Shown here piece by piece: positions 5,737-56,734 of a stretch of 64,000 nt of DNA; position 1 is the stretch's first letter; every line of letters begins with the position of its first letter. The DNA is from Candidatus Tayloriibacteriota bacterium (lineage in GTDB: Bacteria; Patescibacteriota; Minisyncoccia; Phycocordibacterales; CAIZLB01). The position numbers and the translations under genes were made by a program. The notes under the pieces were generated by a model. That model was not told the DNA's origin, ran no database searches, and saw only the letters and a list, made by a program, of their open reading frames with translations. Location: positions 9,721 through 73,720 of the forward strand of contig VEQN01000003.1 in NCBI GenBank assembly GCA_018883165.1, in the 5' to 3' direction.

Positions 5737-6084
5737 ATGACAAAACACGTAATTGACGCACAAAACAAAAAACTAGGGCGAGTAGCATCAGAAGCTGCAG
5801 CTATCCTCATGGGCAAGAACACTGCTGATTTCGCACGAAACATCGCTCCTGATGTTAAGGTTGAAATCATCAACGCATCAAAAGCTGATATTTCTGAGAA
5901 GAAGAAAGGTGAGAAGTTTTACATTACATACTCAGGTCACCCAGGAGGACAAAAGCGAGAGAAACTCGGTAAGCTCATCGAGCGAAAGAATGTTTCTGAA
6001 GCATTTAAGCGGGCAGTAAAGGGTATGCTCCCAGACAACAAGCTCAAGACAAAGATGCTTCTTAACCTTACTGTAACTGAATAA
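5737..6084 (+). CDS. rplM: 50S ribosomal protein L13
   Basis: Matches L13 (AVKGMLP motif). Confidence 0.88.
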   Translation: MTKHVIDAQNKKLGRVASEAAAILMGKNTADFARNIAPDVKVEIINASKADISEKKKGEKFYITYSGHPGGQKREKLGKLIERKNVSEAFKRAVKGMLPDNKLKTKMLLNLTVTE

Positions 6085-6098
6085 TATTTAATACAAAC

Positions 6099-6503
6099 AT
6101 GACTGAATCAAAATCAAAGTACATAGAAGCTGTAGGACGACGAAAGACTTCAACTGCTCGAGTTCGAATGACTCCAGGAGCTAAGCAGTCAGTTACAATC
6201 AACGACAAACCTATCGCTGAATACTTCAAAACAAACGAACTTCAGGTTGTTGCTCTTGAAGCATTCACTAAAGCTGGCATCGAACAGAAGTTTGCAGTTT
6301 CTGCTCATATTGTAGGTGGCGGTATCAGTTCTCAGGCTCAGGCACTTCGACACGGAATCGCTCGAGCGATTGAAAACTATGACAAGAACCTTCGAGGTGC
6401 TCTCAAGAAAGAAGGATTTCTTACACGAGATCAAAGGGCAAAAGAACGAAGAAAGTTCGGTCTCAAGAAAGCTCGAAAGGCTCCACAGTGGTCAAAACGA
6501 TAG
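6099..6503 (+). CDS. rpsI: 30S ribosomal protein S9
   Basis: GRRKTSTARVRM...GGGISSQAQALRHGIARAI...KKARKAPQWSKR matches S9. Confidence 0.9.
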   Translation: MTESKSKYIEAVGRRKTSTARVRMTPGAKQSVTINDKPIAEYFKTNELQVVALEAFTKAGIEQKFAVSAHIVGGGISSQAQALRHGIARAIENYDKNLRGALKKEGFLTRDQRAKERRKFGLKKARKAPQWSKR

Positions 6504-6568
6504 CAATACAAAGAACAACTCCTCGAAAGAGGGGTTTTTCTTTTACTTTGTATATAAAAATAATATCA

Positions 6569-6597
6569 TTGACATATTAATAATTTACATGTATATT
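6569..6597 (+). promoter_or_regulatory. sigma70-like promoter TTGACA-N17-TATATT
   Basis: Exact TTGACA at 6569-6574, a 17-nt spacer and TATATT at 6592-6597. Predicted TSS near 6604. Confidence 0.5.
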
Positions 6598-6603
6598 ATT
6601 AAC

Positions 6604-7021
6604 GTTGACTAAAGGTTGGGAAACCAGCCCGTAGTCAGGGTCGTTCAGTCGGTTCTGAACAGGATATAGTGCAGAAGTTTCAACCGTGTGTTGAAACTGA
6701 AGTACGAACAACCAAGGTCTAATCCTGGGAGAGCAAAAAACATTACGGTATCTGGCAGTGCGGCTGTCGGAAATGTAGTCGTCTCTCACGACCCTGTCTA
6801 CGTATGTATAGCAACGCTCTCGGCACATGTGCCGGGCTTTTCTTTACCTTGACAGAATTTAAAAATGGGTTAGTGTTGTATCGCTGTAACCCAATGATTG
6901 AAGGGTGACGACCGTCGGCCGCGTGGCCAAGATCCGATAATCCAAGCTACAGCTCGGAATCCAAGGCGGTCGTCACCTGACTCATGTACCTACACAGCGC
7001 TTAAAGTGGCGCTGTTTTTTC
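6604..7021 (+). ncRNA. unassigned highly structured non-coding RNA locus (possibly two transcripts)
   Basis: About 420 nt with no credible ORF but many perfect hairpins: GTTCAG/CTGAAC (6644-6661), GTTTCAAC/GTTGAAAC (6677-6697), CGGCACATGTGCCG plus T-run (6821-6845), and an 11-bp stem GGTGACGACCG/CGGTCGTCACC (6904-6977). It ends with the hairpin CAGCGCttaaagtgGCGCTG plus T6 (6995-7020). A second TTGACA lies at 6848. Confidence 0.35.
6995..7021 (+). terminator. rho-independent terminator
   Basis: Hairpin CAGCGC ttaaagtg GCGCTG followed by TTTTTT. Confidence 0.6.
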
Positions 7022-7063
7022 ATACTTGCATTGAGACTCGCTTTTCATTAAAATAGCACCACT

Positions 7064-7675
7064 ATGACAGATCGGAACCTTCAAGACGATACAAAAGACC
7101 TAGAAATTGAGCCAGAGAACCCTTCTTTGGACGATACTCTGGAATCCGAGTCAGATGTAGTCATTGATGAAGAAGCTGAGATGGCTACACCTCAGATTGT
7201 AAAAAGTCTTCGAGAAAAGCTCAAGAAAGCTGTTGAAGAAAAACAAGAGTACCTTACTGGGTGGCAGAAGGACAAGGCAGAGTTCATCAATGCACGAAGA
7301 CGAGACGAGGAATCTAAACAAGAGTTTCTTAAGTTTGCTAATCAAGGTGTCATCGAAGAACTACTTCCTGTAATGGACAGTTTTGACATGGCAATGGCCA
7401 ACAAAACAGCATGGGAGTCTGTCTCAAAAGAATGGAGATCTGGTATGGAAGGCGTATATACACAACTTGTTGGTGTTCTTCAAAAGCACGGGGCAACAGG
7501 CTTTGGGGCAGTGGGAGACAAGTTTGATCCAAACCTCCACCACTCAATTGGTCTTACAGAAACACCTGATGCGTCTTTTGATGATACTGTTTCTGAAGTT
7601 ATGCAAAAAGGATATACTGTACATGGTAAAGTAATACGGCCAGCACTGGTTAAGGTGTTTGAAGTAAAGAAATAA
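7064..7675 (+). CDS. grpE: nucleotide exchange factor GrpE
   Basis: GrpE coiled-coil and beta domain (ARRRDEESKQEF...VIEELLPVMDSFDMA...GKVIRPALVKV). Confidence 0.85.
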   Translation: MTDRNLQDDTKDLEIEPENPSLDDTLESESDVVIDEEAEMATPQIVKSLREKLKKAVEEKQEYLTGWQKDKAEFINARRRDEESKQEFLKFANQGVIEELLPVMDSFDMAMANKTAWESVSKEWRSGMEGVYTQLVGVLQKHGATGFGAVGDKFDPNLHHSIGLTETPDASFDDTVSEVMQKGYTVHGKVIRPALVKVFEVKK

Positions 7676-7676
7676 C

Positions 7677-8108
7677 ATGCTATCAAATTCAAGAATACTC
7701 GCACAAGGAAAAATAGCTGACAACATTGTGTTTTTGACACAGGTTGATTCAACATACGTGCTTGTTCTTGGTACAACCTTCATACAAAAAGGTATATTCT
7801 CAAAGAAAACAACTTTTAAAGTTCTTGATCAAAAAATACTAACTGCCGAGGAAGCACTTCTTGCACTTGAACAAATCAAGAATCTACAGAAAGGAGAGGT
7901 GTCTTCGAAACTTCTTTCAGCTCCACAGCTTCCAGGTGAAGTATCTCCATATATTGAAGATTCGATTGTACTTCTTCTTGAAACATCGAAAGAGGCGCCA
8001 CTACACCAGCCTGAAAAGAAGAAGACTGCTCCAACTCTTTCACCATACTATCCAACAAAAGAAATTTTTCTTGCATCTCAAATGACCTGCGCACCGAATA
8101 TGTATTAA
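7677..8108 (+). CDS. hypothetical protein inserted between grpE and dnaK
   Basis: 143-aa ORF starting 1 nt after the grpE stop. No recognisable family. It could be lineage-specific or spurious. Confidence 0.35.
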   Translation: MLSNSRILAQGKIADNIVFLTQVDSTYVLVLGTTFIQKGIFSKKTTFKVLDQKILTAEEALLALEQIKNLQKGEVSSKLLSAPQLPGEVSPYIEDSIVLLLETSKEAPLHQPEKKKTAPTLSPYYPTKEIFLASQMTCAPNMY

Positions 8109-37173: not shown

Positions 37174-37419
37174 ACCGATCGTGAGTTGTAAAATAAGCCG
37201 AAATTTAGCTGGTAATGTGTACGCCGATTACTGAGTATCAGTACACTTGCACTAAAATTTAAAAAGCACCTATGTGCTTTATGCCAATATAGTAGCATGT
37301 CACCCCCTTTTTTGTCAACGAAATTGATGCAAAAATGGCTTTTGTAATACAATTTATGTGGCTAAAAATAAAGGTATAATTGATAGATATACCTTTACAA
37401 AATGACAATATATTGTATT

Positions 37420-37641
37420 CTATTTTATACCCTTTTGCAGGCCCTCAAGCACCTTAGCTGCTCGGTCCACTTTCTCTATCTCCTCCCTATCACACTGTAC
37501 CAAAATAGGGGTTTTCTCCCCTATCCTACCTACCAAAAACACCCCTAAACCTATTGAACACACCAAGAAAGAAAGGTTTAAGACTAGTAAGATTCTGGTG
37601 AGTCTTATTTTCGCATCTGGGGTATTGAATAATATAGTCAT
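37420..37641 (-). CDS. hypothetical small membrane protein
   Basis: 73 aa with one TM helix. Confidence 0.3.
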   Translation of the reverse strand: MTILFNTPDAKIRLTRILLVLNLSFLVCSIGLGVFLVGRIGEKTPILVQCDREEIEKVDRAAKVLEGLQKGIK

Positions 37642-37770
37642 TTGGTATATACTCTTCCTTGCTACTTTCGGTATAGAGCTTCAATAGCTTAAGACGAGTT
37701 ACCTTAAGGAAGCTTGAATTATATATAAAAAGCTCTAACTGAAGCTTCAATTAATTATTACTAATACACT

Positions 37771-38043
37771 ATGGCAACCAAAAAAGCTGCCGGTTCGGCA
37801 AAAAACTTAAGAGATTCAAACCCACAGTATCTTGGTATCAAGCTATACGGAGGTGAAAAAGCATCAGCAGGTGCAATCATCGTTCGACAGCGAGGTAACA
37901 AAATTACAGCTGGTAAGAATGTAGGCATGGGCAAAGACCACACACTCTACGCTCTCAAAGAAGGTATTGTGAAGTATGGATCAAAGCGAGTTGTATCTTT
38001 CGATAACACAACAAAGGTTAAGAAAGTTGCTCACGTTGAATAA
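37771..38043 (+). CDS. rpmA: 50S ribosomal protein L27
   Basis: MATKKAAGS...[16 protein letters not shown] matches L27. Confidence 0.9.
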
Positions 38044-52122: not shown

Positions 52123-52162
52123 GTCCTGATTTTAGCACGACTATTGAAACCACTTAAATTTG

Positions 52163-52234
52163 TGACCCTACCGGGAATCGAACCCGGCTTTAGAGCTTGA
52201 GAAGCTCTCGTCCTAACCGATAGACGATAGGGCC
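52163..52234 (-). tRNA. tRNA-Glu (anticodon CUC)
   Basis: Reverse complement GGCCCTATCGTCTATCGGTTAGGACGAGAGCTTCTCAAGCTCTAAAGCCGGGTTCGATTCCCGGTAGGGTCA. Features: 7-bp acceptor stem, GTCTA..GGAC D-arm, anticodon loop TTCTCAA, and T-arm CCGGGTTCGATTCCCGG. No encoded CCA. Confidence 0.85.
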
Positions 52235-56186: not shown

Positions 56187-56258
56187 TACCACTTCTTCCC
56201 ACTTACTTACTATTCTATTCCACTTTACTTCACTTAGCAAACAAAAATACCCACTTTT
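56187..56258 (-). promoter_or_regulatory. phased AAGTGG direct repeats (putative MraZ operator)
   Basis: Minus strand reads ...AAGTGGGAAGAAGTGGTAAA... Plus-strand CCACTT copies lie at 56189, 56199, 56220 and 56251, with spacing of about 10, 21 and 31 nt. Confidence 0.4.
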
Positions 56259-56279
56259 AGGTGGATAACTTAAAGAAAA

Positions 56280-56342
56280 TACCCGCACCACGTAATGGGT
56301 GTACGCGTGCGGGTAGACAGCCTGTCTTGAAGGGTGTTTTTT
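56280..56342. terminator. strong bidirectional hairpin/terminator
   Basis: TACCCGCAC-18nt-GTGCGGGTA, a perfect 9-bp stem, with T6 downstream on the plus strand and TTTTCTTT downstream on the minus strand. Confidence 0.45.
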
Positions 56343-56734
56343 CCACCCAACATTTACCACCAGGGCATTTGTCACTAGAACACTGCCTGGATGGGTTATT
56401 ATGCCGCTCATCTGTCACTGCCGGGGTCAGGTAGAGCTCCTCTCGGTTAAGTTAACATCACACAGGGTGAGAAACCCCTGCAATCGGGTATATGTGCTTC
56501 CACACAGTGACCCACTTTACGACCTTTAACACGCTATGTATTTTAGAGATTCTTCATGTACATAATTAACAACCCAACAACAGATAATGGTTCTGTTGTA
56601 TGTACTCTGGAGAATCTCTTTTCACGTGCCATTCTGTTACAGCAATGTGTGATGCGTTTGTGCTATTCCAACTTCAGAGACTCGCTCAGAGGTTGGTACA
56701 CGAAAATGCTACTCTGGGTAGGACAAAGTGTCAA

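Follow-up and report, generated by a model that had tools for sequence, protein, structure and literature searches.

The rpsI–grpE spacer contains two predicted transcription units

The window analysed here is a gene-dense 64-kb stretch of DNA from the Paceibacteria, within the Patescibacteria (Candidate Phyla Radiation, CPR). The subject of this study is the spacer between its genes rpsI and grpE (positions 6504–7063, 560 nt). This spacer is occupied by two cassettes on the + strand, each with a promoter and a terminator, namely unit 1 at ~6604–6845 (~240 nt) and unit 2 at ~6883–7021 (~139 nt), the ends of both being predicted. The lengths agree with the two transcripts of about 240 and about 135 nt that had been proposed in a preliminary description of the sequence. 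The gene order rpoA-rplQ-rplM-rpsI, spacer, grpE, hypothetical open reading frame (ORF), dnaK, dnaJ is kept in ~45 related loci, across which the length of the spacer ranges from 17 to more than 2000 nt. Judged by GrpE, the relatives are metagenome-assembled genomes labelled Paceibacteria, Taylorbacteria or Parcubacteria; the closer ones, with 77–80% identity in GrpE and 85–90% in RpsI, were taken from Logan, JGI and NCBI assemblies. Individual loci are designated by L numbers.

The ribosomal protein operon ends at rpsI with an intrinsic terminator at 6517–6546 (+), in which an 8-bp stem (hairpin 6517–6536) is followed by a T-run, and in relatives rpsI has the same element behind it. The unit 1 promoter is located at 6569–6597 (+) and consists of a −35 element TTGACA (6569–6574), a 17-nt spacer and a −10 element TATATT (6592–6597). 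This promoter had been recognised from the start; it agrees with the consensus at 11 of 12 positions, and the transcription start is predicted at ~6604 (+). The intrinsic terminator of unit 1 lies at 6819–6845 (+), where the CGGCACATGTGCCG palindrome (hairpin 6819–6836) precedes a T-run. This terminator is kept in L171 and L172, and a one-sided change there preserves the base pair. The unit 2 promoter follows at 6849–6876 (+), with a −35 TTGACA (6849–6854), a 16-nt spacer and an unusual −10 TAGTGT (6871–6876), which also precedes the unit 2 homologue in L083. The second TTGACA had therefore been noticed correctly, its position being 6849–6854 rather than 6848. The predicted start of unit 2 is ~6883 (+), and its intrinsic terminator at 6994–7021 (+) is formed by the hairpin ACAGCGC...GCGCTGT (6994–7015) and T6. 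Both the internal palindrome with its T-run and the end terminator had been pointed out in the preliminary description.

A terminator scan returned five terminator-like sites against 1.3 expected, and three of them are on the + strand in the spacer. In the relatives, all cassettes start with a comparable near-consensus promoter immediately 3′ of a terminator. With its own near-consensus promoter of the sigma-70 type, its own terminator and no ORF, each unit has the generic features of an independent, trans-encoded small RNA (sRNA) gene.

The stretch had been called densely structured, and it is, with folding z-scores of −4.6 to −6 relative to dinucleotide shuffles. The value is −4.96 for unit 1 (−5.98 without the terminator) and −4.64 for unit 2; for the whole 420 nt it is −5.87 on the + strand and −4.49 on the − strand. 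When the relatives are included, the z-scores of all cassette bodies range from −2.4 to −6.

Structure and covariation of the unit 1 RNA

The body of the unit 1 RNA spans 6602–6818 (+), as defined by a covariance model match, covariation and the folding z-score. P1 (6603–6607 with 6812–6816) joins the 5′ end to the 3′ region and is followed by HP1 (6614–6629), which has a GAAA loop, and by the long P2 (6631–6644 with 6788–6801). The interior of P2 contains HP2 (6645–6658), the conserved ACAGGAUAUAG (6659–6669), whose CAGGAU pairs with AUCCUG at 6722–6727, HP3 (6669–6705), the conserved unpaired CGAACAACCA (6705–6714) and HP5 (6729–6787). The joiner J3, GUAUGUA (6802–6808), lies between the 3′ strands of P2 and P1. 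All these elements are read on the + strand. As unpaired motifs, ACAGGAUAUAG and CGAACAACCA are common to the window, L171 and L086.

The RNAs of the unit 1 type share one architecture, which comprises from 5′ to 3′ the 5′ strand of P1, a short A-rich joiner, HP1, P2, HP2, a variable interior, the 3′ strand of P2, the joiner GUAUGaA, the 3′ strand of P1 and the terminator. HP1 bears a GAAA loop in several members, and P2 measures 13–15 bp, has an invariant CAGG/CCUG and is stacked upon by HP2. The scaffold is kept while the interior differs from one RNA to another. A further pairing between the 5′ segment and the interior was considered and dropped, being inconsistent in position and absent from L087.

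The covariance model R1 was trained on L086 and L087 only. Searched against the 64-kb window, it gives a single match, at 6602–6818 (+), over its full length (22.6 bits, E 3.7e-4). R1 also recovers L081 (32.5 bits) and L171 (44 bits, E 9e-10), and its weak matches fall exactly on the units of L166 and L082. A trimmed-core model, R3, returned known members only; members with long interiors were missed, and no distant members were found.

In a model-fitted alignment of four distinct unit 1 sequences, 93% of the cells are paired, and both partners have changed in 30 of the 48 pairs. In slid controls the paired share is 35–40%, and none of 500 shuffles reaches the observed values. Because such an alignment follows the structure, the count was repeated on a sequence-only MAFFT alignment of the window, L171 and L172 (74% identity), with the pairs taken from the RNAalifold structure. 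Here 95% of the cells are paired, and there are 9 compensatory pairs, compared with 3.0 ± 1.4 in shuffles and 0–2 with slid partners. In the same alignment 28 cells are G-U pairs, which on the opposite strand would be A-C mismatches, and this indicates that the unit 1 RNA is read from the + strand. Compensatory changes preserve the helices even across sequences that BLAST cannot align; on the divergent cassettes MAFFT gave structurally wrong alignments. The comparison of this spacer across relatives that the preliminary description had proposed has therefore revealed homologues at the same site with compensatory changes.

Structure of the unit 2 RNA

The unit 2 RNA body covers 6883–6993 (+) and is delineated by a folding z-score of −4.6, a hand alignment and the model R2. 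All its elements lie on the + strand. The 5′-terminal segment a, GCUGUA (6883–6888), is followed by the conserved CCCAAUGA (6890–6897) and by P2 (6903–6914 with 6967–6978). P2 includes the 11-bp stem that had first drawn attention, in which GGTGACGACCG (6904–6914) pairs with CGGTCGTCACC (6967–6977) and encloses exactly 52 nt. These contain HP2 (6917–6928) and HP3 (6931–6937 with 6954–6961), whose loop carries a′, UACAGC (6948–6953). A tail (6979–6993) leads to the terminator. The first six nucleotides of the predicted transcript (a, 6883–6888) are predicted to pair with a′ (6948–6953) as a pseudoknot, which would bury the 5′ end of unit 2. A buried 5′ end together with a terminator hairpin is the design expected of a nuclease-resistant, stable RNA.

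Unit 2 of the window, the RNA of L083 and the second cassette of L086 have the same order of segment a, CCCAAUGA, HP2 (GGCC/GGACC...) and HP3 with a′ in its loop; the long P2 is present in the window and L083, and no clear P2 is seen in L086. In all three genomes the predicted start is the first nucleotide of segment a. The pairing segments themselves differ from genome to genome, both for a/a′ (GCUGUA/UACAGC, ACUGCC/GGCAGU and GUGACUCA/UGAGUCAC) and for the stems of HP3 (GAUCCGA/UCGGAAUC, UAGCUC/GGGCUA and CGUGAA/UUCACG). In the hand alignment of the three, which was made to fit the structure and in which the pairs were counted by script, 78 of 78 cells are paired and 21 of the 33 pairs are compensatory, with slid controls at 21–43%. 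The single-sequence model R2 aligns L083 over the full length at 10.8 bits (E 0.76), so that the statistical support for unit 2 is weaker than that for unit 1. Apart from this alignment, the unusual −10 TAGTGT common to the window and L083 and the position of the predicted starts at segment a speak independently for the homology, as do the terminator of unit 2 and the promoter of grpE behind it, over which the window and L086 show 86% identity.

Coding potential and known RNA families

About 420 nt had been described as free of any plausible ORF, and this holds: the longest ORF has 83 aa and is on the minus strand, and none of the ORFs of the stretch matches Pfam or NCBIfam. In the unit 1 alignment of the window with L171 (74% identical) there are five 1-nt indels, which exclude a conserved reading frame. 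A conserved short ORF, such as a type I toxin mRNA or a small-protein gene would have, was not found in the spacer, since the indels break the frames, the frames differ between the window and L171, and no protein family matches. The short-peptide gene that had been named as an alternative is thus not supported. The conserved AUG of the J3 motif was considered as a start codon and dropped, the frames downstream of it being unrelated. Gene callers place spurious ORFs at this site, for example one of 66 aa in L166.

Searching the 64-kb window with Rfam 15 at the gathering score yields only a tRNA-Glu, elsewhere in the window. On positions 6450–7100 (651 nt), lowering the threshold to E ≤ 10 gave noise only, with no match to the models of RNase P RNA, transfer-messenger RNA (tmRNA), signal recognition particle (SRP) RNA or 6S RNA. 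RF00010 and RF00011 do not align in the spacer even at E ≤ 10. The 6S model (RF00013) has no match either, and the minimum-energy and consensus folds are multi-branched instead of a rod with a bubble. In 11 homologous loci searched at E ≤ 5 there was no match to RNase P, SRP or other families, and Rfam searches of 11–22 related loci gave nothing relevant. ARAGORN found a tRNA-Glu (52162–52234) alone in the window and no tRNA or tmRNA in the spacers of 39 related loci. The earlier statement that no known family fits is therefore upheld. In the literature we found no description of this RNA. A blastn search and one motif scan against phages, plasmids and viral contigs matched nothing.

Distribution and turnover of the cassettes

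Promoter–RNA–terminator cassettes are present at the same spacer in nearly all the closer relatives that were fetched. L086 has two, as in the window, and L087 has the first only, while in L171 and L172 the first is accompanied by a decayed 3′ end left over from the second. A third class of sequence is formed by L081 and L166, and a fourth by L082. In L083 there is only an RNA of the unit 2 type, L084 has two further structured RNAs, and the spacers of L167, L169, L174 and L027 contain no cassette. When both units were compared with 80 species-representative loci by BLAST and nhmmer, the sole similarity was the grpE promoter block, and no family members were found in relatives below ~77% GrpE identity. 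Searches of ~0.7 Mb of related loci with R1, R2 and R3 found no family copies outside the rpsI–grpE spacer. Since each model has one copy within the 64-kb window, neither the window nor these ~0.7 Mb show the distribution of a dispersed repeat such as a miniature inverted-repeat transposable element or a Correia-like element.

Replacement of the RNA is seen even between very similar strains. L082 and L171 are 97–98% identical over rpoA–rpsI and over grpE and have the cassette promoter in common, and yet their RNA bodies are unrelated in sequence. Between L086 and L087, unit 2 has been cleanly inserted or deleted, and it is bounded by a repeat, TATACTTG(A)CAT, that forms the −35 region of the promoter which follows; the flanking genes of these two are ~90% identical, and unit 1 is 97–98% identical. 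Unit 1 of the window is 74–77% identical to that of L171, whereas BLAST cannot align it with that of L086, though in rpsI and grpE both relatives are equally close to the window. The cassettes are therefore discrete classes that do not track the species tree.

Other sequences enter the same spacer as well. That of L171 also contains a GNAT acetyltransferase, a UCP032817-like gene and, 3′ of these two inserted genes, a fragment (L171 4112–4182, also in L172) in which part of the rpsI 3′ end is repeated along with its terminator. The fragment resembles the trace that an island leaves on integrating at the rpsI 3′ end. Among more distant relatives, the spacer is filled by HicB/HicA-type toxin-antitoxin pairs (L091 and L177, 3029–3575), a pilin-like ORF (L028) or other ORFs, such as one of 374 aa in L175 that has no assigned family. 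In L081 (2013–2681 and 2760–2930), the promoter and first ~45 nt of the cassette L081b are nearly duplicated in front of a neighbouring ORF of ~171 aa, which this copy would drive. This ORF gives no meaningful Pfam match and only 15 bits in PADLOC; either it has borrowed the sRNA leader, or the ORF and the sRNA are functionally linked. Other GC-rich, hairpin-rich non-coding stretches with promoter and terminator signals occur at this site in more distant relatives, namely L001 (5370–5870, probably minus strand), L003 (5090–5800, +), L084 (2480–2960, +), L092/L005, L093 and L095. They match neither Rfam nor the three models and may be further, unrelated RNA cassettes.

The grpE promoter and other features of the window

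The grpE promoter is located at 7026–7063 (+), with TTGCAT, a 17-nt spacer, TAAAAT (7049–7054) and 9 nt to the ATG at 7064. The block CTTGCAT-N17-TAAAAT-AGCACCACT-ATG (7026–7066) is highly conserved in relatives with 0, 1 or 2 cassettes, and the motif CTTGCAT...TTTTCATTAAAATAGCACCACT is thus kept with and without RNA cassettes. No operator of the HrcA-binding CIRCE type is visible at 7026–7066. The promoter sits 3′ of the last terminator and predicts a 5′ untranslated region (UTR) of ~3 nt, so that the grpE mRNA would be near-leaderless. A conserved grpE promoter downstream of the last terminator, with a 5′ UTR of this length, argues that the RNAs are separate genes and not a leader.

Several other features of the neighbourhood were recorded. 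At only 115 aa, the product of rplM (5737–6084) is a short version of ribosomal protein L13, and all close relatives have it at the same length. Between grpE and dnaK, a 143-aa ORF (7677–8108, +) is kept in position in all close relatives (132–166 aa); it belongs to no family of Pfam, NCBIfam or PADLOC and might represent a chaperone-operon gene that has yet to be characterised. At 37230–37760, ~530 nt of AT-rich non-coding DNA lie upstream of a short rpmA-like ORF (37772–38043). A second structured non-coding locus is found on the minus strand at 56248–56734, with a promoter TTGACA-17-TAGCAT at 56734–56706 and terminators at 56267–56248 and ~56330–56285. Its ~430–460 nt are ORF-free, with a folding z-score of −3.3, and Rfam is blank there even at E ≤ 10. 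It may encode either a further RNA not yet described or a housekeeping RNA that has diverged strongly.

Comparison with known RNA systems

The orphan structured non-coding RNA classes (raiA motif, OLE, ROOL/GOLLD, HEARO-type) resemble the present RNAs in their intergenic position, in a multi-helix fold backed by covariation, in conserved unpaired junction nucleotides, GNRA loops and a pseudoknot, and in a function that cannot be deduced from sequence. However, the Rfam models of these classes do not match here, and the present family is phylogenetically narrower, confined to one chromosomal site and hypervariable between strains.

Neighbouring same-strand sRNA genes, each with its own promoter and terminator and with varying copy number, occur as PrrF1/PrrF2, OmrA/OmrB and AbcR1/2. 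Tandem sRNAs of the PrrF or OmrA type are short, have open seed regions and are clearly alike in sequence from copy to copy. In contrast, the two units described here differ in sequence, are 140–240 nt long and almost fully structured, and have both ends locked. With 6S RNA (ssrS) they have in common the abundant-type promoter, a length of 150–250 nt and a structure that is kept while the sequence drifts, but 6S RNA is a rod with a central bubble and a core gene, whereas here there is a dispensable three-way junction with a multi-branched interior. Retron msr-msd RNAs are characterised by 5′/3′ terminal pairing, short conserved hairpins, a long stem with a strain-variable interior and an accessory or defence-island context, and the cassettes share all these features. 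Unlike a retron, none of the cassettes has a reverse transcriptase beside it (the neighbours in the window are rpsI, grpE, the hypothetical ORF and dnaK), and each has its own terminator. The topology is also like that of the catalytic domain of RNase P RNA of the CPR, with P1, a hairpin and a long helix enclosing the rest, and unlike it in the length of 130–240 nt, the non-universal presence and the replacement between strains.

Discussion

Two questions are raised by these results. What are the two units, and through what would they act? One conceivable answer is that they form a cis-acting leader or attenuator, for instance a set of heat-sensing terminators, which controls read-through into grpE-dnaK-dnaJ. 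In favour of this, the units immediately precede the heat-shock operon and share its strand, and each has a terminator at its end. But grpE has its own strongly conserved promoter, with the ATG 9 nt past the −10 element, and this promoter is identical in relatives with 0, 1 and 2 cassettes. The cassettes are dispensable and interchangeable, and a read-through mRNA would leave the grpE AUG internal, with no evident ribosome-binding site. As the RNAs neither lie in a 5′ UTR nor are co-conserved with the gene, as a riboswitch or cis leader would be, we regard this explanation as highly improbable. A divergent housekeeping RNA (RNase P RNA, tmRNA, SRP RNA or 6S RNA), which the preliminary description had offered as one of its two interpretations, would be compatible with the size and the strong expression signals, and RNase P RNAs below the Rfam thresholds are known from CPR genomes (PMC8172020). 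Nevertheless it is barely credible in this case. These families are absent at E ≤ 10 from the 651 nt and at E ≤ 5 from 11 homologous loci, ARAGORN is negative, and members of the family described here can be as short as ~130 nt. Above all, the site is empty in some close relatives, the RNA is replaced between strains that are 98% identical, and L087 is devoid of unit 2; such a pattern of presence, absence and replacement is not that of an essential housekeeping RNA. It has also been considered that the spacer holds only decaying remnants of accessory genes with fortuitous structure, or else a small-protein gene. This would suit an insertion hot spot with rapid turnover, the decayed cassette remnant in L171 and the ORFs that gene callers put here (66 aa in L166). 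Against it, compensatory changes hold the helices together across sequences that BLAST cannot align, and no variant has lost its promoter, its terminator or its very low folding z-score; for a small protein, the 1-nt indels, the non-conserved frames and the want of a protein family speak equally clearly. Both forms of this explanation appear very unlikely to us.

Classical base-pairing sRNAs, arranged as tandem paralogues in the way of PrrF1/PrrF2 or OmrA/OmrB and with CCCAAUGA and CGAACAACCA as seeds, would account for the tandem independent units with their own promoters and terminators and for the presence of short conserved single-stranded motifs. Typical seed sRNAs are nonetheless smaller than these RNAs and have far less structure, and the motifs are not common to all cassette classes. 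Among the complements of CCCAAUGA and CGAACAACCA in the window, those of one are at chance, and those of the other exceed shuffles only through matches with one mismatch and have no link to gene starts. We therefore think that this explanation is distinctly unlikely. Somewhat better placed, if still on the unlikely side, is the idea that the cassettes supply the RNA of an accessory module or of one for genetic conflict, for instance as an antitoxin, decoy or guide-like RNA; here the P1/HP1/P2 scaffold would bind an effector encoded elsewhere and the interior would give specificity. It draws on the company kept at the hot spot (HicAB in L091 and L177, the GNAT acetyltransferase in L171, the pilin-like ORF in L028 and other ORFs), on discrete classes of RNA bodies that do not follow phylogeny, on the 97–98% identity of unit 1 between L086 and L087 relative to flanks of ~90%, and on a scaffold that is conserved around a variable interior. 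On the other side, the window has no adjacent effector, toxin or reverse transcriptase gene, no phage, plasmid or viral contig matched, PADLOC gives only 15 bits for the one neighbouring ORF in L081, and repeats of the type III antitoxin kind are lacking. Such a module is a special case of the explanation that we prefer, not its opposite.

The explanation that we prefer, and hold to be probable, is that the spacer contains two adjacent, independently transcribed structured sRNA genes on the + strand, which belong to an undescribed, lineage-restricted family and act in trans. Judged from their sequences, the units are members of one undescribed RNA family, or of two putative sister families, of a narrow Paceibacteria clade. 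The predicted members always lie between the rpsI terminator and the grpE promoter, at a hypervariable accessory locus. The other original interpretation, a lineage-specific sRNA, is consistent with this, since the closest Paceibacteria relatives are the only ones in which homologues with compensatory changes were found, each time in this spacer. The cassettes have one scaffold in common and undergo duplication, deletion and exchange between strains. Each RNA is predicted to fold compactly into several helices that sequester both of its ends. Unit 1 would have its 5′ end paired with the 3′ region in P1, beside the GNRA-loop hairpin and the long P2 with its several enclosed hairpins, and in unit 2 the first six nucleotides would form the predicted pseudoknot with a hairpin loop. 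Of this, the sequence comparison establishes the anatomy, the strand, a structure backed by covariation, the lack of a conserved ORF and of a match to a known family, and the way in which cassettes come, go and replace each other. The RNAs are presumably made and stable, and would act in trans through their structure. We infer that they are neither a grpE leader nor classical seed-pairing sRNAs.

As to the mode of action, the binding, sequestering or decoying of a protein partner is the most plausible single mechanism, which we put forward tentatively on the grounds of an intricate fold with locked ends, of conserved nucleotides at the junctions and of the GNRA loop. Turnover between strains points to a role that is accessory, perhaps in genetic conflict, and not part of the cellular core. 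A more speculative and rather improbable version would be an RNA-only accessory module, in which a three-way-junction scaffold (P1, the GNRA hairpin and P2 with CAGG/CCUG and GUAUGaA) bears an exchangeable interior payload, the alleles being under diversifying selection as guide-, decoy- or antitoxin-like partners of a protein encoded elsewhere, for example in conflict with phage, host or competitor.

Several points weigh against the reading of the units as trans-acting sRNA genes and its extension to a protein partner. The promoters and terminators were called by matches to a consensus that may not be that of this phylum. The homologue set consists of ~8–10 distinct sequences, all from metagenome contigs, and the strongest covariation counts stem from alignments fitted to the structure. 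The homology of unit 2 is based on a hand alignment, synteny and motifs, with an R2 score that is not significant. The fast turnover could also reflect weak selection on the RNA body, and the protein partner is itself a prediction.

Patescibacteria have tiny genomes with scant non-coding DNA, and there is almost no knowledge of their regulatory or structural RNAs. The family described here is well delimited and supported by covariation, and is described by no database. A conserved scaffold with swappable bodies, at a site where sister strains carry toxin-antitoxin cargo, is unusual for bacterial sRNAs. The second locus at 56248–56734 suggests that such RNAs are under-annotated in this lineage, and the rpsI–grpE spacer offers a concrete target for metatranscriptomics, for a new Rfam model and for tests of RNA-based accessory functions.

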